Origin: an uncultured Acidobacteriota bacterium
Lineage (GTDB): Bacteria; Acidobacteriota; Vicinamibacteria; Vicinamibacterales; Fen-181
Length of the DNA stretch: 64,000 nt
NCBI GenBank assembly: GCA_963717945.1
Contig: CAVQXT010000003.1
Coordinates: 1,342,622-1,406,621 of the forward strand
Direction of reading: 5' to 3'
The position numbers were made by a program, and so were the translations under genes. Below, piece by piece: positions 1 to 48,774 of the stretch; the stretch's first letter is position 1, and each line of letters opens with the position of its first letter. The notes under the pieces were generated by a model, which saw only the letters and a list, made by a program, of their open reading frames with translations, did no database searches and was not told where the DNA came from.

Positions 1-240
1 GGCCGTGTATTCAGGGTAGGAGAAGCTCTCGTAGAGCCGTCCCTGGGTCGGGCTCTTGGCGAAGGCCCTGACGATGTCCGCGGGGGCCTTTACCGGGAGC
101 GGCTTCCACAGCAGCGTGTCGAAGATACCGAAGAGGGCGGCGTTTGCCCCGATCCCGAGGCCGAGGCAGATGACGGCGGCAAGCGTGAAGCCCGGGCTTC
201 CCCCCAGGGAGCGCAGGGCGTAGCGGAAGTGCTGGACCAT
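1..240 (-). CDS. ADOP/MacB-like FtsX-family ABC permease, N-terminal fragment (gene continues off the left edge)
   Basis: The reverse complement of 240..1 reads MVQHFRYALRSLGGSPGFTLAAVICLGLGIGANAALFGIFDTLLWKPLPVKAPADIVRAF. The RYALRSL..SPGFT...LGIGAN motif followed by a first TM helix is typical of acidobacterial duplicated orphan permeases. It is not in the ORF track because it is truncated. Confidence 0.6.
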   Translation of the reverse strand, partial: MVQHFRYALRSLGGSPGFTLAAVICLGLGIGANAALFGIFDTLLWKPLPVKAPADIVRAFAKSPTQGRLYESFSYPEYTA

Positions 241-370
241 CGCGGCCTCGTGCCCGTGCTACCGAGGAGGACGCAATTCCAGGTTGATTTGTTCCCGCGG
301 GGCCGCGCCTCGCGCGTCGCCCCGCGGGCCGGCCCTCGGCCTGACACGGCCGGGGACCGGACACCGGCGA

Positions 371-415
371 GAGCCGAAAAGCCTAGAGCCGAAAGCCTAG
401 AGCCGAGGGCCTAGG
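371..415. repeat. Heptamer-based tandem repeat (GAGCCGA/AAGCCTA alternating, 3 copies of a 14-bp unit)
   Basis: The sequence reads gagccgaAaagccta gagccgaaagccta gagccgagggccta gg. It overlaps the TAG stop (411-413) of the small minus-strand ORF. Confidence 0.8.
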
Positions 416-620
416 ACGTGCGGCGAGTGCGAGCCGAGGCCCAGGCCAGGGCGAGCATGATGAGGCCAAACCCGGCGAGCACGAGTCCCCACCACAGGTT
501 CACGTTGATGCCGAGCGACACCTGGTAGATCGCCGGGTCGCTCACGAGGCCGTAGACGGCCAGCAGCGCGCCGAGTGCCGCGAACAGCAACCCGATTGGA
601 ACGCGAAGATCCAGGGACAC
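411..620 (-). CDS. Small two-TM membrane protein, unknown function, downstream of the SSS symporter
   Basis: The 69-aa ORF has a GTG start, two hydrophobic helices (IGLLFAALGALLAVYGLV; LWWGLVLAGFGLIMLALAW) and a purine-rich GAGAGAGG upstream. It lies on the same strand as the symporter. Confidence 0.45.
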   Translation of the reverse strand: MSLDLRVPIGLLFAALGALLAVYGLVSDPAIYQVSLGINVNLWWGLVLAGFGLIMLALAWASARTRRTS

Positions 621-640
621 AGGACACCTCTCTCTGCCGG

Positions 641-661
641 CTTACGCCTCACGCCTCACGA
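641..661. repeat. Heptamer tandem repeat (CTYACGC x3), same unit family as 2554-2653 and 48252-48289
   Basis: The sequence reads cttacgc ctcacgc ctcacga. Confidence 0.6.
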
Positions 662-682
662 CCGCAGCACGGCGGCCCGCAT

Positions 683-781
683 GCCGCGCCGCAGGGATCT
701 GCGCGAGCCAGGCGTAAACCTGCCCCGATGGGCCGGCCAGCGAGGGGCCGCCTGGCGAGCGGCAGACCCGAGACGCGGCGT
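683..781. repeat. Intergenic repeat family C, copy A (split by an insertion of about 45 bp)
   Basis: gccgcgccgcagggatctgcgcgagccagg ... cggcagacccgagacgcggcgt is near-identical to 7657..7716. Confidence 0.65.
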
Positions 782-802
782 GCGGGGCAGGACATCCGGA
801 CA

Positions 803-2467
803 TCACCAGAAGTACAGGTTCAGTGCGAACGACGCCGCCAATACGATCACCCCGAGCACCAGCGGCCGTCGATACCACGCCAGTCCCACCGACGACGGCT
901 TCGGCGTGAGCGAGTAGACCAGGCCCACCAGGTCCTTCTCGTCGCGCGGCGTGGTCACGAAGCTGATGAGAATCGTCAGCACGAAACAGCCGGTCCACGC
1001 GACGATCGCGCCCCAGAAGTTCTGCGCCATGTCGCTCGGGTAGGTGTGAAGCCACCCGACCCGCCCCCCGGCCACGCCGGTCAAGCCGTAGTGCACGGCA
1101 GCCGCGCCGGTCCCGCCCATCAGCCCCCAGAACGCCCCGTTCGGCGTCGTCCGCTTCCAGAACATGCCCAGGAGGAAGGTGGCGAACAGCGGCGCGTTGA
1201 TGAACGAGAAGACGAGCTGCAGCAGATCCATGATGTTGTTGAACATCATGGCGATGTAGGCGGTGGCGATGCTGGCGATCGTGCCGAACACCGTCGCCAT
1301 CCGCCCCATCCACAAGTAGTGCGCGTCGTCGGCGCCAGGCTTGATGTAAGTCTGGTAGATGTCGTACGTCCAGACGGTGTTGAAGGCGGTGACGTTGCCG
1401 GCCATGCCGGACATGAAGCTCGCGAGGAGAGCCGCCAGCCCGAGGCCGAGCAGCCCCGAGGGATAGAGCCTCTGCAGGAGCACCGGCAGCGCCCGATTGT
1501 AATCGACCTTGCCGGCCGCGTCCGCCAGGCCCGCGTCGCCCACCAGCGCGAGGATGACCATCCCGGGCAGGATCACCAGGAACGGGAAAAGCATCTTCGG
1601 GAACGCCGCCACGAGCGGCGTCCGCTGGGCCGCGTTCATCGACTTGGCCGCCATCGCCCGCTGGACGACCAGGAAGTCGGTGCACCAGTAGCCGAAGGAG
1701 AGGACGAAGCCGAGGCCCATCACCATCCCGAACCACTCGACCCCCATCGGGTTGGCCGACGCGCTTCCGAGGTGCTGCCAGGAATGGGTGAGCACGCCCG
1801 GCTCGAATCCGCGCGCGACGCTCACCGCGGCCAGCTTCGCCTGGAGCCCCGGCCACCAGCCGACGGCCTTCAGGCCCAGGAGGGAGAGCGGCAGGAACCC
1901 GAACACGATCAGGAAGAACTGCAGAACCTCGTTGTAGATCGAGCTGGTCAGCCCGCCGAGGAACGTGTAGCCGAGGACGACGAGCGCCGCGATGAGGATG
2001 CTGGAGTTGATGTCCCAGCCGAGGAACTGGCGGAAGAGCAGCCCCATCGCGTACATGCTGATCCCGGATGAGAAGATCGTCATCACGGCGAACGACATGG
2101 CGTTGAAGCCGCGCGTCTTCTCGTCGAACCGCAGGCGGAGGTACTCGGGCACCGAGCGGGCGCGGCTGCCGTAGTAGAACGGCATCATGAAGACGCCGAC
2201 GAACACCATCGCCGGGATGGCGCCGACCCAGTAGAAGTGGCTGGTGAGGATGCCGTACTTGGCGCCGCTCGCCGCCATCCCGATCACTTCCTGCGCGCCG
2301 AGGTTGGCCGAGATGAACGCCAGGCCGGTGATCCAGGTCGCCAGGCTGCGGCCCGACGTCAGGAAGTCGAGGCTCGTGCGCATGTAGCGCTTGAGCGCCA
2401 CGCCGATGCCGAGGACGAACACGAAGTAGAGGCCGATGACCGCGTAGTCGATCGCGTGCAGGTGCAT
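803..2467 (-). CDS. Sodium:solute symporter (SSS family) transporter
   Basis: The ORF is polytopic. The sequence from the internal ATG at 2467 (MHLHAIDYAVIGLYFVFVLGIGVALKRYM...DFLTSGRSL..W..G...SANLGA) is typical of the SSS N-terminus. The upstream 30 codons of the track ORF look non-coding. Confidence 0.85.
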   Translation of the reverse strand: MHLHAIDYAVIGLYFVFVLGIGVALKRYMRTSLDFLTSGRSLATWITGLAFISANLGAQEVIGMAASGAKYGILTSHFYWVGAIPAMVFVGVFMMPFYYGSRARSVPEYLRLRFDEKTRGFNAMSFAVMTIFSSGISMYAMGLLFRQFLGWDINSSILIAALVVLGYTFLGGLTSSIYNEVLQFFLIVFGFLPLSLLGLKAVGWWPGLQAKLAAVSVARGFEPGVLTHSWQHLGSASANPMGVEWFGMVMGLGFVLSFGYWCTDFLVVQRAMAAKSMNAAQRTPLVAAFPKMLFPFLVILPGMVILALVGDAGLADAAGKVDYNRALPVLLQRLYPSGLLGLGLAALLASFMSGMAGNVTAFNTVWTYDIYQTYIKPGADDAHYLWMGRMATVFGTIASIATAYIAMMFNNIMDLLQLVFSFINAPLFATFLLGMFWKRTTPNGAFWGLMGGTGAAAVHYGLTGVAGGRVGWLHTYPSDMAQNFWGAIVAWTGCFVLTILISFVTTPRDEKDLVGLVYSLTPKPSSVGLAWYRRPLVLGVIVLAASFALNLYFW

Positions 2468-2553
2468 GCCGCGTCTCCGGAATCGGGCGTGTCCGCGAGG
2501 CGAACCGGTGCATTCTTGCATTAGGGAGGGAGCACGGCAATACTGAATCCGGC

Positions 2554-2653
2554 CCACGCCCTACGCCTTACGCCTTACGGCGGCGTCACGCGGGTCACGG
2601 CGCCTCGGGCCGTTGGCCGCAAGTCGTAAGGCGTGAGGCGTAAGGCGTAAGCC
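2554..2653. repeat. Inverted pair of heptamer arrays (ACGCCTT-type left arm, GCGTRAG-type right arm) in a divergent promoter region
   Basis: The left arm 2554-2580 (cacgccctacgccttacgccttacgg) is the reverse complement of the right arm 2625-2653 (cgtaaggcgtgaggcgtaaggcgtaagcc). The central spacer is about 45 bp. Confidence 0.85.
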
Positions 2654-2667
2654 GAAAGGAGACATTC

Positions 2668-3930
2668 ATGTCCGACCGGGAATCATTGCTAGACCGTTTC
2701 TGCCGTTACGCCCGCATCGACACGCAGTCGAGCGACACGTCCACTTCGTATCCTTCCACCGAGAAACAGAAGGACCTGCTGCGCGCGCTGGTCGACGACC
2801 TGAAGGCGGCCGGCCTCGCCGACGCCGAGATGGACGAGCACGGCTACGTGATGGCGACGCTGCCGTCGAACATCCCGCCGGGCCATCCTGCGTTCGGACA
2901 CGTGCCGACCATCGGCCTTCTGGGCCACGTCGACACGTATCACGAGGTCTCCGGCGCGAACGTCAAGCCGCAGGTGCACCGCAACTACGACGGCGGCGAC
3001 ATCGTCCTGCCGGGCGACCCGTCGATCGTCCTTCGGGCCGCCGAGGAGCCGGATCTGGTCGCCTGCAAAGGGATGACCATCATCACCGCCGACGGCACGA
3101 CGCTGCTCGGGGCGGACGACAAGGCCGGCGTGGCGGAAATTCTCGAGGCGGTCTGGCGGTTCCGGGAGGATCCCAAGCGGCTGCACGGCCCCATCCGGAT
3201 CGCGTTCACCCCGGACGAGGAGGTCGGGCGCGGCACCGAGCGGTTCGACGCCAAGAAGTTCGGCGCCGCCTTCGCCTACACGGTGGATGGGTCGGGCGTC
3301 GGCGAACTGGAAAGCGAGACGTTCTGCGCCGACAGCGCCACGCTCAAGGTCGGCGGCGCCGACGTGCACCCCGGATACGCCAAGGGCAAGATGACGAACG
3401 CCGTGCGCGTGCTCGCCGACGTCATCATGGCCCTGCCGCAGCACCGGACGCCGGAGACGACGGAAGCGCGGGAAGGCTACCTGCACCCGATCAACATCGG
3501 CGGCAACGTGTCGGAGGCCTCCGCGAACTTCATCGTCCGCGACTTCACCGAGGATGGGCTCCACGACCTCGAGGCGACGCTGAAAGCCGCCGCCGCGTGG
3601 GCTGGAAAGAAGTATCCGGGCGCGAAAGTGCAGGTCGAGACGAAGGAATCGTACCGGAACATGAAGTACATCCTCGACCAGCACCCGCAGGTGACCGACT
3701 ACGCCGAGGAGGCGATCCGCCGCGCGGGCCTGACGCCCAAGCGCACGTCGATCCGCGGCGGCACCGACGGCGCCCGCCTGACCTTCATGGGCACCCCGAC
3801 GCCCAACCTCTTCGACGGCAGCATGAACTTCCACGGCAAGAAGGAATGGGTGCCGCTCGAATGGATGGACGCTGCGGTCCAGACCCTCCTGCACCTCATG
3901 GACGTCTGGGTTGAACGAAATCGGAACTGA
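2668..3930 (+). CDS. pepT: Peptidase T (tripeptide aminopeptidase, M20B)
   Basis: The 420-aa ORF starts LLDRFCRYARIDTQS..S...PST.KQ, which is PepT-like, and carries M20 motifs (GHVDT, GADDKAG, FTPDEE). An AAAGGAG SD lies 7 nt upstream. Confidence 0.9.
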   Translation: MSDRESLLDRFCRYARIDTQSSDTSTSYPSTEKQKDLLRALVDDLKAAGLADAEMDEHGYVMATLPSNIPPGHPAFGHVPTIGLLGHVDTYHEVSGANVKPQVHRNYDGGDIVLPGDPSIVLRAAEEPDLVACKGMTIITADGTTLLGADDKAGVAEILEAVWRFREDPKRLHGPIRIAFTPDEEVGRGTERFDAKKFGAAFAYTVDGSGVGELESETFCADSATLKVGGADVHPGYAKGKMTNAVRVLADVIMALPQHRTPETTEAREGYLHPINIGGNVSEASANFIVRDFTEDGLHDLEATLKAAAAWAGKKYPGAKVQVETKESYRNMKYILDQHPQVTDYAEEAIRRAGLTPKRTSIRGGTDGARLTFMGTPTPNLFDGSMNFHGKKEWVPLEWMDAAVQTLLHLMDVWVERNRN

Positions 3931-4207
3931 CGCAGAGGGATCGGTTCTGACGATGAGGAATCGAATCTGACGATGAGGGATCGGAACTGACGCAGAGTGA
4001 TCGGTTCCGCTGCTCCGATTCCTCATTGAGGTACCGATTCCTCATTGAAGCGATCTCATGAGTACCGATTCCTCATTGAGGTACCGATTCCTCATTGAGG
4101 TACCGATTCCTCATTGAGGTACCGATTCCTCATTGAGGTACCGATTCCTCATTGAGGTGCCGATTCCTCATTGAGGTGCCGATTACTCATTGATGTACCG
4201 ATTACCT
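3918..4207. repeat. Dyad of 19-20-bp tandem repeats (about 5 units left arm, about 10 units right arm, opposite orientation), low GC
   Basis: The right arm has period 19: gattcctcattgaggtacc at 4017, 4067, 4086, 4105 and 4124. Variants sit at 4143, 4162 and 4181, with a 31-bp variant at 4036. The left arm (3918-4016) has units gatcggttctgacgatgag, gaatcgaatctgacgatgagg and gatcggaactgacgcagag, which share gaggaatcg with the reverse complement of the right-arm unit. Confidence 0.95.
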
Positions 4208-5281
4208 ATGTCGTTAGCACCCTACATGACCTGGGCCAAGCAGCACGCCCGGTCCCGCTACAACCTGGCAGGCAGTAACCTCCTGGCCTGCGAGCTCTCC
4301 GACCTGCCCGGGGCGCGCGAGGCGCTCGAGTTGCACGGCGACAACGACAACGGCTTTCCGCCGCTTATCGAGGCGATAGCCGCCACCTACGGTGTCGCGC
4401 CCGACATGGTGGTGACGGCCCAGGGCACCTCGGGCGCCAACTTCCTCGTGTTCGCCGCGCTCGTCAAGCCGGCGGACGAAGTGCTGGTGGAGCGGCCGGG
4501 ATACGACCCGCTGATGGGACCGCCGCTGCTGCTCGGTGCGCGCATCACCCGGTTCGACCGCCGGTTCGAGGACGGGTACCGGCTCGACCCCGCCGCCGTC
4601 CGCGCCGCGATGACCAATCGGACGCGGCTCATCGTCGTCACCAACGCGCACAACCCGACCGGTGTCGTGACCGCCGAGAGCGACCTCATCGAGGTCGGCC
4701 GGATCGCGGAACGGTACGGCGCGCGCGTGCTGGTCGATGAAGTGTACCTGGACACGGCGACGGACGGCCCGGTGCGACCCGCGGCCGCCCGCTCGCCGGT
4801 CTTCATCTCGACGAGCAGCCTGACCAAGAGCTACGGCCTCGCGGGCCTGCGCTGCGGCTGGGTGCTGGCCGCGCCCGACGTCGCCGAGGAGGTTCGGCGC
4901 GCCCGGGACATTGTGGACGGCACCGGCGCGTTCCCGGCCGAGCGGCTGTCGGTGCTCGCCTTCTCGCTGATCGACCGCCTCTCCGCGCGTGCCCGGCGGA
5001 TCCTGACGGCCAATGGAGCGGCCGTCAGGCAGTTCCTCGCCGGACGCCGGGACCTCGAGTGCGTGCCCCCTGGCGCAGGCTCGGTCGTCTTCCCGCGGCT
5101 GCGTGGGGTGGACGATGCCGGGCCGTTGGTCGGGATGCTGGCGCGTGAGTTCCAGACCGATGTCGTGCCCGGCCATTTCTTCCAGGCCCCGGCCCATTTC
5201 CGCCTCGGCTTCGGCGGCCGGTCGGAGGATCTCGCCGCGGGGCTCGCGCAGCTCGCCAGGGCGCTCGACGCGCGGGGCTGA
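4208..5281 (+). CDS. Class I/II PLP-dependent aminotransferase
   Basis: The motifs include NAHNPTG and SLTKSYGLAGLRCGW (the SxSK Lys for PLP). The start is uncertain (ATG 4208; alternatives ATG 4193 and TTG 4190) and there is no clear SD, because the repeat array abuts the start. Confidence 0.8.
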   Translation: MSLAPYMTWAKQHARSRYNLAGSNLLACELSDLPGAREALELHGDNDNGFPPLIEAIAATYGVAPDMVVTAQGTSGANFLVFAALVKPADEVLVERPGYDPLMGPPLLLGARITRFDRRFEDGYRLDPAAVRAAMTNRTRLIVVTNAHNPTGVVTAESDLIEVGRIAERYGARVLVDEVYLDTATDGPVRPAAARSPVFISTSSLTKSYGLAGLRCGWVLAAPDVAEEVRRARDIVDGTGAFPAERLSVLAFSLIDRLSARARRILTANGAAVRQFLAGRRDLECVPPGAGSVVFPRLRGVDDAGPLVGMLAREFQTDVVPGHFFQAPAHFRLGFGGRSEDLAAGLAQLARALDARG

Positions 5282-5358
5282 CCGGCAGGCTGGACATCAC
5301 TCCGGGAGTGATGTCCGCGACGACGAACTCCGCGGCTCCCCACTGCGTCTAAAGACCC

Positions 5359-7626
5359 ATGGCTCTCGTGCGTCTTCGGCTGGTTTCGCTCACTCTCGTC
5401 GCGGTCGGCGTGCTCGGCTGCCTGTCCGCCGCCGCCGATCAAACGCCGCCGTCGAAACCTCCCCTCACGGCACAGGCCTTCACCGTCAACAAGGCGACCT
5501 CGGCGATTGTGGTCGACGGCGTGCTGGACGAGCCGGCCTGGGCCGCGGCGACGATGATCCCCGTGGCGTTCGAGTACCAGCCGGGCGAGAACACGCCGCC
5601 GCCGGTCCGCACCGAGTGCCTCGTGACGTTCGACCGGGAGAACCTCTACGTCGCGTTCCGCGCCTTCGATCCGCACCCGTCGGAGATCAGGGCCCACCTG
5701 ATGGACCGCGACGCGATCGACACGTTCATCCAGGACGACCACGTCACTGTCCTGGTGGACACCTTCAACGACGAGCGCCGCGGGTACCAGTTCCGCGTGA
5801 ACCCGCTCGGCGTGCAGGCCGACGCCGTCAACAGCGAGGTGGACCAGGTCGAGGACTGGTCGTGGGACGCGATCTGGAACTCCGCGGGCCGCGTGACCGC
5901 GGACGGCTTCGTCGTGGAGATCGCCATCCCGTTCCGCGAGCTGCGGTTCCCGGGCGGGTCGAACGCGCTGACCTTCGGGTTGTCGGTCGAGCGGTCCTAC
6001 CCGCGCAGCGAGCGGCACCGCATCGCCTCCCATCCCACCGACCGGAACCGCAGCTGCATGTTCTGCCAGTTCAACAAGGTGACCGGCTTCCGCGACCTCG
6101 CCTCCGGGCGCAACGTCGAGATCGACCCGACGGTGACCGGGCACCGAACCGATCGGCGCGAGCCCGCGCCGGACGGGGCCATGGCGAACGGAAAGGCGAT
6201 GGGCGACGTCGGCGTGACCGCTCGATGGCGCATGGCCGCCGGCACCACGGTCACGGGCACCGTGAACCCCGACTTCTCGCAGATCGAGGCCGACGTCGCA
6301 CAGCTCGACGTCAACACGCGCTTCGCCTTGTTCTATCCCGAGAAGCGGCCGTTCTTCCTCGAGGGGCTCGATCTCTTCTCCACGCCCGAGCAGGCCGTGT
6401 TCACGCGGACCGTGGCCGACCCGTCCGGAGGCCTGAAGGCGGTCGGCAAGCAGGGGAGAAACTCGTTCGGGGTGTTCGTGACCCGCGACCGCATCAACAA
6501 CCTGATCATCCCGTCGAACCAGGAGTCGGAGTACGCCTCCGAGGACCAGGGCGTCACCGGCGTGGTCGCGCGCTACCGGCGCGACGTCGGAAGTCGATCG
6601 ACGTTCGGTGTGCTCTACACCGGGCGGGAGGGCGCGCCCTACTTCAACCGGGTCTTCGGCCCCGACGCCCAGATCCGGCTCGGGCGGTCGGAGATGTTCA
6701 GCGTCCAGCTCCTGCACACCGAGACGCAGTACTCGCCCGGCGTCGCCGCGCGTTTCGGCCAGAGCTCGACCGCCTTCGGCGGCAACGCGGTGCGGCTCAA
6801 CTACGACCACATGGCGCGGTCGTGGTACTGGGGCGCGGGCTACGTGGACCGCGATGGCGGGTTCCGCGCCGACAGCGGGTTCGTGCCCCGCGTGGATCTC
6901 CGCCAGGGCAACGGCTACCTGCAGTACCGATTCTGGGGCAAGGCCGACTCGTGGTTCAGCACGTTCGACGTCGGGGTGAGCGCCTCGCGCGCGGCCGATC
7001 ATGCCGGGACGCTGACCAACCAGTCGATCTCGGCCGCCGCCGCCTACCAGGGTCCTCTCCAGTCACAGTTGCAGGTCACGGTCGAGCGGGACAGGGAGCT
7101 GTTCGCCGGGACGATGTACGACGAGACGGTCGTCACGACCCAGGCCGTGCTGAAGCCGTCCGGGGCCTTCGCGCTCCAGTTCAGCTCGACGATGGGGGAC
7201 GGCGTCGATTACGCGAACCACCAGCCGGCCACCGTGATCCGTGTCGGGCCCTCTGTGGAGTGGAAGGCCGGCGCCCGGCTGAACCTGCTGCTCACCCACT
7301 CGCTCGAGCGGCTGACGGTCCCGTCAGGGTGGCTTTACACTGCCAACCTCTCGCAGTTCCACGCCGTCTACCATTTCAACCGGCGCACGTTCCTGCGGGC
7401 CATCCTGCAGTACACCGACATCGCGCGCGACCCGGCGCGCTATCTCGAGCCGCCCGACGCACACAGCACCAGGTTGTTCGCGCAGTATCTCTTCTCGTAC
7501 AAGCTGAATCCGCAGACGGTCCTGCTCGTCGGGTACTCCGACAACTACAACGGGGCCGCCGGCGCGCCGCTCGCCCAGCAGGACCGGACGGTCTTCGTGA
7601 AGATGGGCTACGCGTGGCTCCTCTGA
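5359..7626 (+). CDS. Secreted CBM9/DOMON-like domain plus beta-barrel outer-membrane protein (DUF5916-like)
   Basis: It has a signal peptide and the N-terminal motif VVDGVLDEPAW...ENLYVAFRAF typical of CBM9-like modules. A long alternating beta-strand C-terminal region ends in GYAWLL. Confidence 0.6.
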   Translation: MALVRLRLVSLTLVAVGVLGCLSAAADQTPPSKPPLTAQAFTVNKATSAIVVDGVLDEPAWAAATMIPVAFEYQPGENTPPPVRTECLVTFDRENLYVAFRAFDPHPSEIRAHLMDRDAIDTFIQDDHVTVLVDTFNDERRGYQFRVNPLGVQADAVNSEVDQVEDWSWDAIWNSAGRVTADGFVVEIAIPFRELRFPGGSNALTFGLSVERSYPRSERHRIASHPTDRNRSCMFCQFNKVTGFRDLASGRNVEIDPTVTGHRTDRREPAPDGAMANGKAMGDVGVTARWRMAAGTTVTGTVNPDFSQIEADVAQLDVNTRFALFYPEKRPFFLEGLDLFSTPEQAVFTRTVADPSGGLKAVGKQGRNSFGVFVTRDRINNLIIPSNQESEYASEDQGVTGVVARYRRDVGSRSTFGVLYTGREGAPYFNRVFGPDAQIRLGRSEMFSVQLLHTETQYSPGVAARFGQSSTAFGGNAVRLNYDHMARSWYWGAGYVDRDGGFRADSGFVPRVDLRQGNGYLQYRFWGKADSWFSTFDVGVSASRAADHAGTLTNQSISAAAAYQGPLQSQLQVTVERDRELFAGTMYDETVVTTQAVLKPSGAFALQFSSTMGDGVDYANHQPATVIRVGPSVEWKAGARLNLLLTHSLERLTVPSGWLYTANLSQFHAVYHFNRRTFLRAILQYTDIARDPARYLEPPDAHSTRLFAQYLFSYKLNPQTVLLVGYSDNYNGAAGAPLAQQDRTVFVKMGYAWLL

Positions 7627-7656
7627 CGGCTCGGGGCTACGGCACGGCCGCCCCAA

Positions 7657-7716
7657 GCCGCGCCGCAGGGATCTGCCCGAGCCGGGTCGAGGGACGGCAG
7701 ACCCGAGACGCGGCGT
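7657..7716. repeat. Intergenic repeat family C, copy B
   Basis: gccgcgccgcagggatctgcccgagccggg..cggcagacccgagacgcggcgt matches 683..781. It lies in a convergent intergenic region. Confidence 0.65.
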
Positions 7717-7723
7717 TCTGGGC

Positions 7724-8909
7724 CTACTTCGCCGAAAACGCGTAAACGGTCGTCGACCGATAAGCCTTGCCCGGCTCGAGGATCGTGGACGGGAAGTCCG
7801 GGTGATTCACCGAGTCGGGGTAGTGCTGCGTCTCGAGGCAGAACGCGGAGTGCTTCTGGTAGGGCACGCCGCGCCGGTTCTTGATCGTCCCATCCAGGAA
7901 GTTCCCGGTGTACAGCTGAATTGCCGGCTCCGTCGTCCGCACTTCCATCGTGCGGCCCGACCTCGGCTCGACCACCCGCGCCGCCACGCGCAGCGGCTGG
8001 CCGGCCAGCGCGGGGCGCAGGACGTAGTTGTGGTCGTAGCCGACGGGCGGCGCAATCGGGACCTTCTCGATGCGCGCGCCCAGCGGTGTCGGCTGGTTGA
8101 AGTCCATCGCGGTGCCCTTGACGGGCACGATCCTTCCGGTCGGGATGAGCAGTGTCGTCGGTCGGGGTGAAGCTGTCGGCGGCGATCATCATGATCTGGT
8201 CGAGGATGAGGCCGTTGCCCTCGCCCGCGAGATTGAAGTAGCTGTGGTTGGTGAGGTTGATCGGCGTCGGCTTGTCGGTCGTCGCCGTGTAGTCCAGGCG
8301 CAGTTCGTTCGTGTCGGTGAGCGTGTAGACCACCGTCACGTCGAGCGTCCCCGGGTACCCCTCGTCGCCGTCCGGGCTGCGATGGGTGAATGTCACCGCC
8401 TCTCCGTCCTTCACCCGGAGCACGTCCGCCTTCCACACGACCTTGTCGAAGCCGACGTTGCCACCGTGCAGGTGGTGCGGCCCGTTGTTGGTGGCGAGGT
8501 GATAAGTCCTGCCGTTCAGTGTGAACGTGCCTTTGGCGATCCGGTTGCCGACGCGGCCGATCGTCGCGCCGAAGTACGGCGTGCCGGCGAGATACGGCTC
8601 CAGCGTGTCGAACCCCAGCACGACGTTGGCCGGCCTTCCGGCCTTGTCGGGGACGATGAGCTCGGTGAGCGTGGCGCCGTAAGTCATGATCTTCGCCGTC
8701 ATGCCGTGGCGGTTGGTGAGGGTGTAGATCTCCACGGGTGTCCCGTCCTTTGTCTTGCCGAATGCGGCCTGCGAAACCGGCTTCGCGCCCGCCGGAGAAG
8801 CGGCCTGGCCGGTGGCGAGCGCCGGCGACACGACGACCGCCGCGGCGACCGCCAGCACGATGAGGACCGAGCGATGCTGTTTCACCCTTGTCTCCTTCCG
8901 CTCCTTCAT
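7724..8909 (-). pseudogene. galM: Aldose 1-epimerase (galactose mutarotase) with the reading frame broken near 8153
   Basis: The N-terminal 250 codons (signal peptide, then GATIGRVGNRIAKGTFTLNGRTYHLATNNGPHHLHGG) lie in one frame. The C-terminal part (LLIPTGRIVPVKGTAMDF...QHYPDS) lies in another frame. The junction is gac gac a ctg ctc atc, a 1-nt excess or 2-nt deficit. Confidence 0.7.
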
Positions 8910-11374
8910 TTCGTCCTTGGGCCGATCCGCACGGTGAGCGCGCAGTCCACCCACTCGGTCGCGCCGTCGGGCACGGTGACGTCGACGATCCGGACGCGAC
9001 CCTCGCGCCCCGCCTCGCGGCCCCCTTCGAGTGCCAGGACGGCGAACGGCACGTCGAGCCGGACGCGATAGGTCCGGCCGCGCAGGCCCTGCAGCCGCGC
9101 GGTGAAGACGCGGCCGTCGAGCCGCGTCTCGACGACGCGCAGGCGCTGCGGCGAGTCGCCGAGCGTGAGCGGGGCCTCTTCGGGTATCAGGACGATGGCC
9201 GGCAGCGCCACCTTCGGCTGGACCACCGAGACGGCCATCGGGCCACCCGCCCGGTCGATGAAACGGCTCGAGACCGTGCCGCCAGCATCGCGACGCACTT
9301 CCAGGTCGCCGCGCCCCTCGCGCCACCGGATGTTCTTCACTCGAAGGAAGTCCCATCCGGGCGGCAGGTGCGGCGTCAGCCTGAGTTCGCGATCCCCTTC
9401 TTCGAGACCGACCAGGCCGCGCATGACGCCAGAGACGAACCCGGTCGTGGCGAACAGCTGGTGCGGCACGGCGGCGTCGACCGACCGGAGCAGGTCGCCC
9501 GAGAGCAGTTCCGGCAGGTAGCCTCGTGCCTCCAGGAACGTCAGCTCCGACAGCGCCTCGAGGTACTGCCACGCCGCGTCGGGCCGGCCGCCCTTGTAGA
9601 GCGCCAGCGCGGCCCAGCCGGTCAGGAACGGCCACGACGCGCCGTTGTTGTAGGACAGCGGCTGATAGAGCGCGCTCTCCTTCGAGAGCATTCTCGCGCC
9701 CCAGTCGGTGCCGATCCCGGCGCGCGCCAACTCGTCGAGCGTACCGTCCACCGCCGGCCGGTCCCGATCGAACACCCCGCGCCAGATGCCGAAAGCCGGC
9801 CACACGGTCTGCTCGGCCTGGGCCGTCCCGTCCTTCATCACCGCGAAAGTGATCCGCCTCCCGCCATCGTCCGGGAATCGACGGTTGAGTGAGGCGCGGG
9901 CCTTGCCGGCCGCGGCCTGCGCCGTGGCCGCGAACGACGGGTCGGCGATCCTGGCGAGGTCGGCCGTGGCCGCGGCGGCTTCGGTCCACACGCTGCCGAG
10001 GAACACGTCGGTCAGGACGTCCCGGCTGCGGAGGGTGCCGGTCTCGACGGCCGCCAGCCCCGCCTTCGTGTTGTCCATCAGGCCGTCGCCGTCCTCGTCG
10101 GTCGAGACGCAGTAGTCGTACGCCTTGCGCATCGACGGCCAGTAGTCCCTCGCGAAGCTCTCATCGCCGCTGGCGCGGACGTAGTCGCGCACGGCGACGA
10201 TGTAGAGCGGCGTCGTGTCGGCGTGGTAGTAGCCGTAGGGGTAGTCCTCGAACCAGCGGATGTAGCCGGCGCCCTGCGACAGCTCGTGCATCATCTTGCC
10301 GTCGGCGCGCTGCCGCTTGCGCAGGAACTCGAGCGACTGCCGGACGGTGTCGAGATCGCCGTACGAGGAGATCGCCCACGCGTTGATGAACGCGTCGCCG
10401 CCGAAGAACCAGCCGAAGCCAGGGCGCTCGGTCGTGCCCGACGGGCCGAGGCCGGCCATCAGGCCGCAGCCGAGTTGCGGGTTGCAGACGAAGCCCTTGT
10501 CGAGCGCGACCTTGCCCCACTCGAACGCGAGATCGAACCGCTTGTCCGGCGACTCGATGCTGGTCATCTCCTCGCGGAGCCGCCGGTAGTGCGCGAACGA
10601 CTCGCGGTAGAGCGCCTCGGGCGAGGCGAGAAGCCGGGCGTACGTCTTCTTCGCCGCGTCCAACTTCTCGACGCTGGCGGTGATGGCGATCGGCACCAGT
10701 CCCCGCGCCGCCATCTCGGGCGTGATGCGGATGGCGAATTGCGACGGCGCGTCCGGCAGGTTGTGGGCGGGTTGTTCGGGCGGCGTCAGGCCGAGCGGCG
10801 ACCCGATGAGCGCGGCGTTCTTCCCGCTGCCCTCGCCGATGACGTACGCCTTGAGCCCGTCATCCCAATAGCTGTACTGGCCGCCGAGCGCCGCCGGCCA
10901 CATCGGTTTGAGGTCGGGACGGAACGTCACGTAAATCGTCAGCGTCTCGGTCGTCCTGACGTCGAGCAGCACCAGGCCGCCGGGTTGGTCGAGCGGCACG
11001 AGCCACGTCGCGTCCACGGTGAAGGCCGCGTGCGAATAGCGCACGGTGGCGGCCTCGGGCCTGATGTCGACGATCGAAGCCAGGCTGGCATCCGGGATCG
11101 GGTCGGCGTAGGCCGCAATCCCGAACGACAGGTGGAAGTCGTGGAGGATCTTGAGCGGGTAGGCCCAGGCTTCGAAGCTGCCGTCCTCGCGCCCGAGGAA
11201 CGCCGCGCGTCGGCCCGAGGCCTCCAGGTATCGCGCCGGTCGGGTGTCGCCGCGTATCGCGATCGGGTTCGGGTCGCGGACGAACCGGGGGACGAGGCCC
11301 GCGGCCGGATCGGCCGCGCGGCAGGGGAGGGCGACCGCTGCCGCGAACATGATCGACGCGACGAGGGTCTTCAT
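8906..11374 (-). CDS. Secreted (alpha/alpha)6 six-hairpin glycosidase, glycogen-debranching (GDE_C)-like
   Basis: The 822-aa ORF has signal peptide MKTLVASIMFAAAVALPCRA. The central region (GGDAFINAWA...YHADTTPLYIVAVRDY...DGDGLMDN) resembles amylo-alpha-1,6-glucosidase-type barrels. Its stop overlaps the galM ATG (ATGA). Confidence 0.6.
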   Translation of the reverse strand: MKTLVASIMFAAAVALPCRAADPAAGLVPRFVRDPNPIAIRGDTRPARYLEASGRRAAFLGREDGSFEAWAYPLKILHDFHLSFGIAAYADPIPDASLASIVDIRPEAATVRYSHAAFTVDATWLVPLDQPGGLVLLDVRTTETLTIYVTFRPDLKPMWPAALGGQYSYWDDGLKAYVIGEGSGKNAALIGSPLGLTPPEQPAHNLPDAPSQFAIRITPEMAARGLVPIAITASVEKLDAAKKTYARLLASPEALYRESFAHYRRLREEMTSIESPDKRFDLAFEWGKVALDKGFVCNPQLGCGLMAGLGPSGTTERPGFGWFFGGDAFINAWAISSYGDLDTVRQSLEFLRKRQRADGKMMHELSQGAGYIRWFEDYPYGYYHADTTPLYIVAVRDYVRASGDESFARDYWPSMRKAYDYCVSTDEDGDGLMDNTKAGLAAVETGTLRSRDVLTDVFLGSVWTEAAAATADLARIADPSFAATAQAAAGKARASLNRRFPDDGGRRITFAVMKDGTAQAEQTVWPAFGIWRGVFDRDRPAVDGTLDELARAGIGTDWGARMLSKESALYQPLSYNNGASWPFLTGWAALALYKGGRPDAAWQYLEALSELTFLEARGYLPELLSGDLLRSVDAAVPHQLFATTGFVSGVMRGLVGLEEGDRELRLTPHLPPGWDFLRVKNIRWREGRGDLEVRRDAGGTVSSRFIDRAGGPMAVSVVQPKVALPAIVLIPEEAPLTLGDSPQRLRVVETRLDGRVFTARLQGLRGRTYRVRLDVPFAVLALEGGREAGREGRVRIVDVTVPDGATEWVDCALTVRIGPRTK

Positions 11375-21212: not shown

Positions 21213-21273
21213 ACAGACACCTTGCGATCTGGCGATCTTGCGATCGAGCGACCTGATGGCAGGCTGCCGGCTG

Positions 21274-21374
21274 CAGGCGTCGGGCTTCGGGCCTTATCAC
21301 GGGCGTCCCGGCAAGACAGACGCGCGTGACGCGGCCTGAAGTCCGAAGCCCGTAGCCCGAAGCCGAAGTCCGGC
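21274..21374. repeat. Intergenic repeat family D (inverted GGGCTTCGGGCC / GGCCTGAAG arms with heptamer-like extension) between leuA and leuB
   Basis: gcaggcgtcgggcttcgggcc ... gcgtgacgcggcctgaagtccgaagcccgtagcccgaagccgaagtccgg shares caggcgtcgggcttcgggcc and cgcgtgac..ggcctgaag with 27723-27789. Confidence 0.7.
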
Positions 21375-25032: not shown

Positions 25033-25125
25033 GGCTCTGGGCTCTCGGCTCTTGGCCGCGTCCGGCTCATGGCCCGGGCCCAGGGCCCGACAGAGCCGAG
25101 AGCCGAGAGCCGAGGGCCCAGGGCC
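25033..25125. repeat. Inverted pair of heptamer arrays (GGCTCTN left arm, GAGCCGA right arm) in a divergent promoter region
   Basis: ggctctgggctctcggctcttggcc (25033-57) opposes agagccgagagccgagagccgagggcccagggcc (25092-125). Confidence 0.85.
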
Positions 25126-25185
25126 GTTTCCTGATCTACAATCCTCCGTCACCGGTGCCGTTTGGCGCCGGACAAGGAGCAGCTC

Positions 25186-26916: not shown

Positions 26917-27717
26917 TCAGAGGGGGGTGAGGGCCCTGAGCGGGCCGACCCCCGGCTCGCCCGCGTAGACCACGCGCTCGAGGAACAGGCCGGAGGCCGG
27001 CGCGGTAACACGCGCCGGCACCGGCGACGGCTCCAGCAGGAATCCCTCGGCGGCTTCGACGCCGAGATGTCCCCGCCCGACTTCGACCAGCACGCCCACC
27101 ACGCGGCGGACCATCTTCCAGACGAAGTGCGACCCGGCGACCCGGATCAGGATCAGGGCGCCGTCTTCCTTCACCTCGACGAGATCGACCTGGACGTGCG
27201 TGGAGACTTCGTCCGGGTCGCTGTCGGTGAAGGACCGGAAGTCGTGCATGCCGACAAACGCGCCGGCCGCCTCCCGCATCGCGCGCACGTCGAGGGCGTC
27301 CTTCACCCACCAGACAAACGGCTTGGCGAACGCGGTCCGGCGGCGCGAGACCTGGTAGAGGTAGCTGCGCGAGACGGGGTCGCGCCGCGCGTGGAACCGG
27401 TGGGGCACCGGCTCGATCCCGAGAACGTTGATGTCGGCGGGCAGGAGGTCGTTGATCTGCCGCCGCAGCATTTCTGGGGGAACGGCCTTGGGGAGATCGA
27501 GATGCGCCACCTGCCCGACGGCGTGCACCCCGGCATCGGTGCGCCCGGACCCCTGGATTTCGGGCGCGGCCACGCCGGTCGCCTCGCGCACCGCCCGGAG
27601 CAGCTCGCCCTGGACCGTTCGCGCGTTCTTCTGCACCTGCCAGCCGCTGTAGCGCGTCCCCGCGTACTCGATCGCCAGGCGGTACCTTGGCACGTCGGTC
27701 ACTCCTGAAAACGCCAT
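26917..27717 (-). CDS. truA: tRNA pseudouridine(38-40) synthase
   Basis: The sequence reads YRLAIEYAGTRYSGWQVQ...GSGRTDAGVHAVGQVAHLD. Confidence 0.9.
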   Translation of the reverse strand: MAFSGVTDVPRYRLAIEYAGTRYSGWQVQKNARTVQGELLRAVREATGVAAPEIQGSGRTDAGVHAVGQVAHLDLPKAVPPEMLRRQINDLLPADINVLGIEPVPHRFHARRDPVSRSYLYQVSRRRTAFAKPFVWWVKDALDVRAMREAAGAFVGMHDFRSFTDSDPDEVSTHVQVDLVEVKEDGALILIRVAGSHFVWKMVRRVVGVLVEVGRGHLGVEAAEGFLLEPSPVPARVTAPASGLFLERVVYAGEPGVGPLRALTPL

Positions 27718-27722
27718 CGGGC

Positions 27723-27789
27723 TACAGGCGTCGGGCTTCGGGCCATGTCGCACGTGTCACGCGTGACATGGCCTGAAGCCTGTGGCCCG
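27723..27789. repeat. Intergenic repeat family D, second copy (palindromic)
   Basis: The sequence reads tacaggcgtcgggcttcgggccatgtcgcacgtgtcacgcgtgacatggcctgaagcctgtggccc. Confidence 0.7.
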
Positions 27790-27848: not shown

Positions 27849-28637
27849 ATGACCCGACCTGCCCGCCGCCGGCCCGGAGAGGTCGCTCTCGACCGTGCCC
27901 TGTCGAAGCTGGCCATCGCCTCGCGCGCCGAGGCGACGCGCCTCATCGCGGCCGGCCGCGTCCGGGTGGACGGGCGGATCGCGACCGATCCGACCATGCC
28001 GGTCGTGCCCGAGCGCGTGGCGATCGTGGTTGACGGTCGCGAAGCGCCCCGGGCCGCGTGGCGCCTGATCCTGCTCAACAAGCCGCGCGGCGTCGTGACG
28101 ACGCGGCACGACCCGCAGGGACGGCCGACCGTGTTCGATCTCGTGCCGGTTCCCGAGGGCCATCTCATCGCCGTGGGCCGGCTCGACCTGGCGACCTCCG
28201 GGCTGGTTCTGCTGACCACCGACACCCGATTGGCCGACTGGCTCACCGACCCCGCCAACCGCGTGCCGCGCACCTACACCATCACCGCGCGCGGCGAAGT
28301 CGGCGACGACGAGATGCAGCGGTTGATGACCGGTGTGGAATCGGAAGGGGAGCGCCTGGCCGCCCACGAGGTCTCCGTGCGGAAGCGCTCGCGCCGCGAG
28401 ACCCACCTCGTCGTCCGGTTGCACGAGGGCCGCAACCGCGAACTCCGCAGGCTGTTCGACGCGATTGGCCACGAGGTGACGCGGCTCAGGCGCGTGGCGT
28501 TCGGCGGCCTCGACATCGGGACGCTCCCGCCCGGCCGCTGGCGCGAGGTGAGCGAAGACGAGGCGGTGGCGGCATTCCCGTCGTGCCCGCGGATCGGTCC
28601 GGCCCCTCGTCCCCCGTCCCCCGTCCCTCGTCCCTGA
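27849..28637 (+). CDS. Pseudouridine synthase, RsuA/RluB family, with an S4 domain
   Basis: An S4 domain (LDRALSKLAIASRAEATRLIAAGRVRVDG) and the catalytic motif GRLDLATSGLVLLTTD are present. The C-terminal PRPPSPVPRP tail is encoded by the heptamer array. Confidence 0.85.
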   Translation: MTRPARRRPGEVALDRALSKLAIASRAEATRLIAAGRVRVDGRIATDPTMPVVPERVAIVVDGREAPRAAWRLILLNKPRGVVTTRHDPQGRPTVFDLVPVPEGHLIAVGRLDLATSGLVLLTTDTRLADWLTDPANRVPRTYTITARGEVGDDEMQRLMTGVESEGERLAAHEVSVRKRSRRETHLVVRLHEGRNRELRRLFDAIGHEVTRLRRVAFGGLDIGTLPPGRWREVSEDEAVAAFPSCPRIGPAPRPPSPVPRP

Positions 28638-28680
28638 TCCCTGATCCCCGATCCCCGATCCCTAAATCCCCTCTCCCCCG
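28604..28680. repeat. Heptamer tandem array (CCCYCGT/CCCYGAT, about 11 units) spanning two convergent gene ends
   Basis: The sequence reads cctcgtc ccccgtc ccccgtc cctcgtc cctgatc cctgatc cccgatc cccgatc cctaaat cccctct. It contains the TGA of the rluB-like gene (28635-37) and the TAG of cysE (28662-64). Confidence 0.85.
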
Positions 28681-35815: not shown

Positions 35816-35873
35816 GATCGTCGTCCGATCTTACCCGGAACGGCCCCGCTCGGGCCCGAACCTTCACAGTGGC

Positions 35874-36032
35874 GGCGCGGGCTTCCTGGCCCGCGGGATG
35901 GCCGGCGAGGACGCCGGCCCCACACCGTGTCTTGGTGGCGCGGGCCTCCTGGCCCGCGGGATGGCCGGCGAGGACGCCGGCCCCACACCGTGTCTTGGTG
36001 GCGCGGGCCTCCTGGCCCGCGGGATGGCCGGC
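35874..36032. repeat. 63-bp tandem repeat x2.5 (REP family E; two GC hairpins per unit)
   Basis: Units start at 35874, 35937 and 36000. Each unit contains GCGGGCC-TCCT-GGCCCGC and GGCCGGCG-AGGA-CGCCGGCC followed by CCACAC. Confidence 0.9.
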
Positions 36033-48251: not shown

Positions 48252-48289
48252 GCGTAAGGCGTGAGGCGCAAGGCGTAAGGCGTAAGGAG
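48252..48289. repeat. Heptamer tandem repeat (GCGTRAG x5) running into the ybjQ ribosome-binding site
   Basis: The sequence reads gcgtaag gcgtgag gcgcaag gcgtaag gcgtaag gag. The final taaggag serves as the SD 7 nt before ATG 48296. Confidence 0.85.
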
Positions 48290-48666: not shown

Positions 48667-48774
48667 ATCGTGCCGCTCCCGTCCGCCTTCGCCCTATCGG
48701 GGTTCCCGGCGGTCGGCCAGCTCGCGTGAAACGCGTCAGACGGTGTGAAGCCCGGAGCCCGGAGCCTGAAGCCC

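Follow-up and report, generated by a model that had tools for sequence, protein, structure and literature searches.

The DNA analysed here, a window of 64,000 nucleotides from contig CAVQXT010000003.1, carries the peptidase gene pepT and, downstream of it, an aminotransferase (AT) gene, and the gap between the two is filled by two abutting, opposed arrays of 19-20-bp repeats. Tandem Repeats Finder (TRF) reports a left array at 3920-4004 (period 20, 4.2 copies, 80% matches) and a right array at 4015-4203 (period 19, 10.3 copies, 89% matches, score 294). Their opposite orientation is seen from ATGAGGAATCG (3953-3963, left arm), whose perfect complement, CGATTCCTCAT, recurs in eight units of the right arm. 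TRF and this orientation test confirm the dyad of tandem arrays that the initial annotation had described in the pepT-AT gap. The features of the locus, all on the + strand, are:

2668-3930: pepT, tripeptide aminopeptidase, 420 aa (NCBIfam NF003976 at 517 bits with a cut-off of 255, TIGR01882 at 426 bits, Pfam M20 domains)
3919-3998: left arm, four 20-bp units beginning at 3919, 3939, 3959 and 3979, consensus RATCGGWWCTGACGMWGAGG (TRF, unit parse)
3999-4014: partial fifth left unit (GATCGG) and a 10-nt dyad centre, ttccgctgct (sequence, unit parse, fold)
4015-4197: right arm, nine units of the CCGATTCCTCATTGAGGTA type (TRF, motif search, unit parse)
4198-4207: truncated last right unit, CCGATTACCT, adjoining the start codon, with CCGATT at 4198-4203
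4208-5281: pyridoxal phosphate (PLP)-dependent class I/II aminotransferase, 357 aa (Pfam PF00155 at 1.3e-36)

The left arm starts inside the last pepT codons, AAT CGG AAC TGA (stop at 3928-3930), and the last four codons of pepT together with the stop form its first unit. Each left unit of the window is a copy of pepT codons -3 to stop, followed by CG, ATG or CAG, and AGG. The earlier count of about five left units stands for four full units, the fifth being a 16-nt partial. The dyad centre (3999-4014) is predicted to be the apical loop of a folded transcript. The right arm finishes 4 nt upstream of the AT ATG at 4208. Eight of its units are 19 bp long and the second, at 4034-4064, is an odd unit of 31 bp; the strict 19-bp phase claimed in the initial annotation therefore holds only from 4065 onward. 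Over 3900-4249 the GC content is 0.48-0.54, below the 0.60-0.78 of the flanks, as had been noted; within the genes it amounts to about 0.67-0.76.

Five right units (type CCTCATTGAGGTA, at 4015, 4065, 4084, 4103 and 4122) are identical, as reported earlier in a register 2 nt off ours. Those at 4141 and 4160 are GGTG variants, and the one at 4179 is CCGATTACTCATTGATGTA, an older (ancestral) type common to the related loci L091 and L094. The 19-mer CCGATTCCTCATTGAGGTA has nine matches at up to three mismatches, five of them exact and all within 4015-4197, where shuffles expect 0.00. Identical internal units thus lie beside degenerate edge units that include the older type, in agreement with the recent expansion or homogenisation suggested before, and the five identical units are best read as a recent internal expansion. 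The odd unit at 4034-4064 (CCGATTCCTCATTGAAGCGATCTCATGAGTA) aligns to two regular units minus 7 bases; it may reflect real decay or a consensus error. The right unit of the window is a 14/19 quasi-palindrome (CCTCA-T-TGAGG) with a 1-nt loop, the left unit is without internal palindrome, and by sequence reasoning 12 of the 19 nt of the right unit are the reverse complement of the left unit (CCGAYT-CCTCAT).

The array is real, locus-specific and variable between close relatives, and its architecture is common to one clade. L001 is 99.3% identical to window positions 1-9881 and differs from it in only two clusters, one of which is the right arm: three units have changed from GAGG to GAAG and two regular units stand at the place of the 31-bp unit. 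L009 and L013, which are closely related, differ with 5+5 against 11+12 units, so that the copy-number variability suspected in the initial annotation is borne out on both comparisons. Two further public runs contain an exact 49-mer of the right arm, about 4-5 times as deep as the contigs that flank it; this would fit a perfect run no shorter than the 97-bp one of the window. These runs, and the presence of the same architecture at the same junction in independent assemblies of several projects, argue against an assembly artefact, which had been named as a risk. Both arms expand, contract and homogenise fast, most likely by replication slippage or unequal exchange.

No further copy of the 19-mer or of the left-unit core was found elsewhere in the 64-kb window, and regular expressions for core arrays, run over about 450 kb (the window and 96 related loci, the latter about 387 kb), matched at pepT/AT junctions only. 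The exact 19-mer had only three single chance matches, in unrelated metagenome-assembled genomes (MAGs), among 185,579 representative genomes, and a degenerate 23-mer had none in metagenome contigs of the Joint Genome Institute (JGI). A generic genome-wide minisatellite, the other explanation that would have lowered interest in the array, is thus not what was found in the window or the related loci.

The junction was compared across 90 loci with AT orthologues; copy numbers in this set are compared between assemblies, not raw reads. Where the AT is at least about 78% identical and pepT lies upstream, the junction is a dyad, a compact stop/start junction or a short repeat-free gap, with 0 to 18 or 19 units per arm and a unit length of 17-20 bp:

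Window: dyad, 5 left units (4 full and 1 partial), 10 right units
L001: dyad, 5 left, 11 right
L005: dyad, about 19 left units of 20 bp, about 16 right units of 20 bp
L009: dyad, 5 left units of 20 bp, 5 right units of 17 bp
L013: dyad, 11 left, 12 right (20 and 17 bp)
L016: dyad, 3 left units, 4 right units of 20 bp
L091: dyad, 6 left, 2 right
L094: dyad, 2.5 left, 5 right
L008: dyad, both arms degenerate
L011, L014 and L007: contigs begin inside the right arm, with the left side outside the contig
L006: compact junction, AGTCGGAGC TGA cg ATG, no arms
L095-97: compact junction, ...TAA cg ATG, no arms
L088 and L092: short gap, no repeats

In a neighbour-joining tree of the AT, the dyad-bearing lineages form one clade with the compact and array-free junctions nested inside it, from which it follows that the structure is old and was lost or regained several times. 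Right-arm sequence is lineage-specific except for the core CCGAYT, the complement of the left-arm ARTCGG. L005 has new unit sequences in which the AATCGG/CCGATT core is kept; its left arm has 18-19 units of a new 20-bp type and one window-type unit at the pepT end. Within L005 3286-3651 the 18-unit left array contains variant blocks (cggacg, tagacg and cggccg) that recur in runs, which suggests multi-unit duplications, i.e. a higher-order repeat structure. The compact junction also occurs in a peat run. Among relatives at 60-73% AT identity the gaps measure 22-71 bp, and several are filled by heptamer arrays. One more distant lineage (L023 2287-2992 and L024 542-1247) has a 696-bp pepT-AT gap with an inserted small open reading frame (ORF) and no repeats.

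The source of the unit can be read from the compact junctions. Clade-wide, the 20-bp left unit is ARTCGG-WWC-TGA-CG-ATG-ARG, that is, 15 nt made up of the last four codons and stop of pepT, then CG, then ATG, and it is matched base for base by the compact junctions AGTCGGAGCTGAcgATG of L006 and ...TAAcgATG of L095-97. We infer, strongly, that the left unit arose by tandem copying of the ancestral junction of pepT stop and AT start. The unit also includes GAGG, which resembles the Shine-Dalgarno (SD) sequence following CTGACG in the outgroups L019 and L022, so that the original right-hand end of the duplicated segment would have been either the ATG or the SD. Read in reverse complement, the left unit gives CCTCATCGTCAGTTCCGACT; near-exact copies of this sequence occur in the right arms of L010 and L011, and the right unit of the window, CCGATT-CCTCAT-TGAGGTA, has its first 12 nt in common with it. 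On these two grounds there is a strong case that the right unit arose as an inverted copy of the left unit and diverged in each lineage.

Dyads of a smaller unit occur in the same window, at 2556-2659, 21259-21372, 25033-25126 and 27717-27780, and support the kinship with heptamer loci that the initial annotation had pointed out. The one nearest to the array is:

2556-2659, no strand: heptamer dyad, ACGCCTT x3.4 ... AAGGCGT x5.6 (TRF), directly upstream of the pepT SD

It lies in the gap between the sodium/solute symporter (SSF) gene and pepT. Of the orthologous gaps, that of L005 has a different heptamer dyad, CGGCTGA/TCAGCCG, that of L088 a direct array and that of L087 no array; the architecture is retained and the unit replaced, as at the 19-20-bp locus. 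The heptamer dyads of the same genome are the nearest relatives in kind of the 19-20-bp arrays. Intergenic heptamer arrays were also seen at window positions 368-414, 21224-21372, 28599-28678, 48252-48287 and 48749-48774, several of them as inverted pairs.

In RNA the two arms are predicted to pair. Their cores vary jointly: the window and L005 combine AATCGG with CCGATT, the other loci AGTCGG with CCGACT. Outside the core, complementary segments differ by lineage, the window having ATGAGG/CCTCAT, L016 CGCAGAG/CTCTGCG and L005 ACGGG/CCCGT. When duplex energies were set out in a matrix, the cognate left arm was the best partner for the right arms of the window, L005 and L016 (-69.5, -52.5 and -59.9 kcal/mol), non-cognate duplexes in the L005 and L016 columns reaching about -24 to -38 kcal/mol; for the window right arm the cognate tied with the L009/L091-type left unit, which has the same pairing segment. 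The complementarity of the arms may come either from selection or from template switching between the arms of a quasi-palindrome. Template-switch mutagenesis at quasi-palindromes has been described for short ones in Escherichia coli; to our knowledge, there is no report of template switching maintaining paired tandem arrays. Together with slippage, it could give both arms the same new variants without selection, as in L005 and L016.

The predicted minimum free energy (MFE) of the sense strand of the window array is -138.6 kcal/mol (z = -7.0), in line with the hairpin proposed in the initial annotation, and the antisense strand folds about as well. In seven of nine dyad loci the MFE structure closes the whole gap, pairing the last codons of pepT with the last right core. 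The closing helix of the window is AATCGG (3919-3924) with CCGATT (4198-4203), positions 4-9 with 288-283 of the 295-nt stretch folded. Between the last right core and the ATG there are 0-4 nt, except in L091 and L008, where the distance is 12-15 nt. All 42 cells of the six-pair closing helix are paired across seven lineages, one position being GC (4), GU (2) or AU (1). The end of the upstream ORF is thus paired with the downstream initiation region, the arrangement by which coupling through RNA unfolding is recognised, here as a prediction only.

Signals around the gap fit a shared transcript. A scan of 2400-5600 gave no sigma-70-like site and, on either strand, no terminator-like site; the promoter role suggested in the initial annotation found no support in it, and an intrinsic terminator was likewise rejected. 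Reading the right units of the window by eye for -35/-10 or leaderless-type -10 elements revealed nothing convincing. Rfam at the gathering threshold gave no match in the whole window, and at an E-value threshold only sub-threshold miRNA-precursor hairpins in 3600-4500. The window sequence was absent from the RNA runs. A soil metatranscriptome holds low-depth contigs of the L013 lineage on the pepT 3' end, the left arm and the AT 5' end, and two other metatranscriptomes cover pepT of this lineage. Given the lack of promoter- and terminator-like sites in the gap and these contigs, co-transcription is the simplest reading.

The AT has no SD within 20 nt upstream of its ATG in the window. This had been observed correctly before, yet SD sequences are also missing from about half of the called genes in the related loci, and an SD-less AT is not unusual in itself. 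The AT is without SD in all dyad loci, and GGAG stands upstream of it in the array-free L087, the compact L006 and the partial-array L089; this association is qualified by the array-free L088 and L092, whose AT also lacks an SD. The N-terminal start of the AT, MSLAPYM, is conserved in all orthologues. GGA motifs of the CsrA type were looked for by eye and seen in many units but not in all lineages; being expected in GC-rich sequence, they were dropped.

We favour, with about even confidence, the reading that the array is a fast-evolving inverted minisatellite which, as an intercistronic mRNA hairpin, may keep translation of the AT coupled to that of pepT. The hairpin and coupling part of this reading is held with moderate-to-low confidence. 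pepT and AT would be co-transcribed, the array being the intercistronic part of their mRNA, and the array RNA would fold as a long imperfect hairpin of about 12-bp helices with internal loops of 7-8 nt. The helix closing it would join pepT codons -3/-2 (AAUCGG) with CCGAUU, 4 nt before the AUG, and in this way the pepT stop and the AT start would be kept spatially adjacent despite an insert of 277 nt. A ribosome finishing pepT would melt the base of the stem, whereupon the SD-less AT start would be exposed or the ribosome handed over, i.e. coupling would proceed by RNA unfolding or by reinitiation. Array length would then tune the ratio of downstream to upstream expression as well as mRNA stability.

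Several observations weigh against this proposal. The + strand folds better in seven of ten loci, which is no consistent advantage of the sense strand. The covariation of the closing helix is attained by 219 of 500 shuffles and is thus not significant; the left half of the helix, moreover, encodes the end of pepT and is under constraint on that account too. Complementarity in L009 and L013 is limited to about 6 nt per unit (-0.30 kcal/mol per nt), and arms can be very unequal, with 6 left and 2 right units in L091 and 5 and 10 in the window. Half of the left units of the window have CAG in place of the ATG, which L005 has lost altogether, hence a relay of mini-ORFs is not conserved. The L013-lineage RNA amounts to a few contigs from a relative, may include DNA and leaves the right arm uncovered. 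Furthermore, the right arm still adjoins the AT start in L010 (1380-1610), where a pepT remnant of about 25 codons is left, and in L012 (1600-1785), where pepT is absent; coupling to pepT termination cannot explain the persistence of the arm there. The array is also dispensable, since the compact and array-free junctions of L006, L095-97, L088 and L092 are nested in the dyad clade.

A serious, though less probable, rival explanation is that the array is a neutral by-product: a slippage-prone junction and its inverted copy would inflate and deflate unseen by selection, and the hairpin with its closing helix would only follow from an origin by inverted duplication. The patchy presence of the array (at least four array-free lineages nested in the clade), the wide variation of copy number, the unequal arms, the fast turnover of unit sequence and the non-significant covariation of the closing helix are all consistent with it. 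The heptamer dyads with a changing unit in other gaps likewise point to a genome-wide mutational habit, and heptamer over-representation has been ascribed to polymerase slippage (PMC4692102). On the other hand, the architecture has persisted while the AT diverged to 78% identity, and the arms retain lineage-specific complementarity. The right arm moreover always ends close to the ATG, at the distances given above, where the AT is SD-less, and a structured insert of 277-731 nt within an operon is unlikely to leave expression unaffected.

A bolder form of the coupling proposal seems unlikely to us. According to it, the paired arrays would be a selected, length-tunable hairpin that bridges up to 731 nt and delivers the ribosome terminating on pepT to the SD-less AT start, an analogue of ribosome shunting or hairpin-bridged reinitiation; co-expanding dyads, whether of heptamers or of 17-20-mers, would be a lineage-wide way to build adjustable RNA stems in these probably acidobacterial genomes.

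It is very unlikely that the array serves at the DNA level, as a platform of iterated sites for an ARTCGG/CCGAYT-recognising protein (iteron-like or nucleoid-associated) that controls transcription through the junction. Conservation across both arms and all lineages is confined to the hexamer core, the spacing of 17-20 bp is regular, and the quasi-palindromic right unit of the window is what a dimeric binding site would look like. However, helical phasing is not kept, as the period is 17, 19 or 20 bp and changes from one arm of a locus to the other, and the left core doubles as coding sequence of pepT. The array has no regulator gene next to it, there is no promoter-like site to regulate, and the core array occurs at no other locus in the roughly 450 kb of related sequence. 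True iterons of a replication origin (17-22-bp direct repeats by a rep gene or origin) were rejected on the flanks, where the genes for pepT, the AT, the sodium/solute symporter and the CBM9/DUF5916 protein form a conserved chromosomal neighbourhood.

More improbable still is the landing of a dispersed mobile or semi-mobile repeat at the junction, similar to repetitive extragenic palindromes and bacterial interspersed mosaic elements (REP/BIME), miniature inverted-repeat transposable elements (MITE) or mycobacterial interspersed repetitive units (MIRU). What speaks for it is that left-arm-like 20-mers reach a word depth of 350-700x in a wastewater run and one other run, where unique flanks have about 7x. 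These deep words (window 3910-4000 in runs X4 and X3; L013 2548-2763 in X27) are 50-90 times as deep as the flanks and sit on dozens of short contigs with flanks unlike pepT. Other loci with left-type arrays may exist in some genomes. The unlike flanks resemble further diverged left or right units, though, and may be other strains' versions of the same locus. MIRUs also offer a precedent, being intercistronic tandem units with ORFs overlapping the flanking stop and start (PMC12548453; PMC3184786). Against a mobile family stand the searches above, with no second locus in the window or the 96 related loci, three chance singles in the representative genomes and none in the JGI contigs. The local junction accounts for every base of the unit, and the left unit forms neither a hairpin nor a GTAG/CGTC-tagged palindrome (PMC3733652). 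A contingency promoter or spacer whose copy number switches the AT on and off is the least credible account: copy number does differ between close relatives, but no -35/-10-like hexamers lie in or around the array, its 17-20-bp units are neither between promoter elements nor inside an ORF, and the genes belong to the ordinary amino-acid catabolism of free-living soil and peat bacteria.

Set beside known systems, the array is a variant of the bacterial minisatellite and not a new kind of system. It has the marks of bacterial minisatellites or variable-number tandem repeats (VNTR), with units of 10-100 bp head to tail at one locus and variation between close genomes. A close counterpart for its position may be sought in the MIRUs, intercistronic tandem units that are co-transcribed and whose stop and start signals mimic the ends of the flanking genes, so that coupling can survive insertion (PMC12548453; PMC3184786). 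Like these, the array is intercistronic and varies in copy number between strains, and its left unit carries stop and start signals. Mini-ORFs formed by TGA-CG-ATG (ATG and four codons, then TGA) occur in the majority of the left units of L009 and L013 and in two of the four window units, but neither in L005 nor in any right arm. MIRUs, in contrast, are 40-100 bp long and dispersed over about 40-50 loci per genome, whereas here units of 17-20 bp were found at a single locus, which places the array outside that family. The unit is also derived from the local junction and not inserted, and there is a second, inverted arm.

Heptamer simple sequence repeats (SSR), namely the short tandemly repeated repetitive (STRR) sequences of cyanobacteria, GGGAATC of Xanthomonas and GGGGAYT of Nostoc, resemble the array in being intergenic, also within operons, and in including inverted pairs able to form stem-loops. 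Those of Xanthomonas and Nostoc are known to vary between close relatives (PMC4692102), and both in the heptamer arrays and here length and sequence differ strongly between close relatives at the same gene pair. The present unit differs in measuring 19-20 bp instead of 7, and in being locus-specific, traceable to a gene junction and not prone to form G-quadruplexes. No literature specific to acidobacterial heptamer repeats or inverted tandem repeats was found.

Hairpin-forming repeats in an intercistronic region also recall REP/BIME of enterobacteria and pseudomonads, which can stabilise upstream mRNA and alter the expression ratio of adjacent cistrons (PMC3733652; PMC3184786). A REP unit is an imperfect palindrome with a stem of 5-13 bp and a GTAG or CGTC tag (PMC3733652), each a hairpin of 20-40 bp; copies are dispersed and number from tens to thousands, frequently in association with a REP-associated tyrosine transposase (RAYT). 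Here single units are not hairpins and bear no tag, the hairpin arising between the two arrays only. REP/BIME were therefore rejected for lack of a tag and of dispersal, RAYT genes not having been searched for. For the mechanism, the nearest examples are the coat-lysis pair of phage MS2 and E. coli rpmI-rplT, in which the downstream start is sequestered by pairing that the upstream ribosome melts (PMC12548453), as is predicted here; RNA-unfolding and reinitiation models of coupling have been reviewed (PMC12548453). Those examples involve short unique helices with a spacing of up to about 50 nt, unlike the repetitive stem of 277-731 nt in the pepT-AT gap. Two further candidates were rejected: a CRISPR array, because the units abut head to tail with no spacers, and a phase-variable promoter SSR, because there is no promoter-like site and the array is intercistronic.

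The locus displays unusually clearly how a minisatellite may be born, a 20-bp stop/start junction having been copied in tandem and inverted, and how an architecture can be long-lived under constant change of sequence and length. Should the predicted hairpin function in the proposed way, it would provide a natural case of long-distance translational coupling with a strength adjustable by repeat slippage, and the same idea might explain the dyads of tandem repeats that fill many intergenic gaps in this uncultured lineage of soil and peat. In practice the locus is usable as a strain-typing marker, and it is a warning to assemblers and gene callers working on these genomes.

A few minor observations concern the rest of the window. 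The other cluster of differences from L001, at window 5173-5586 (L001 8510-8980), consists of many substitutions and indels of 1-4 nt and extends from the 3' end of the AT across the following gap into the first part of the CBM9/DUF5916 gene; the patch looks recombined or hypervariable. L001 further carries three single-base indels: those at window positions 5873 and 6729 break the CBM9/DUF5916 ORF (5359-7626), and the third is at 8153. No tRNA or tmRNA genes were found in the window. The exact AT protein of the window was not found among recorded proteins, and more remote AT homologues carry the label Acidobacteria MAGs. At window 35870-36032 a GC-rich 63-bp unit is repeated 2.6 times at 98% identity and contains internal inverted repeats (ggcgcgggcctcctggcccgcgggatggccggcgaggacgccggcc...).

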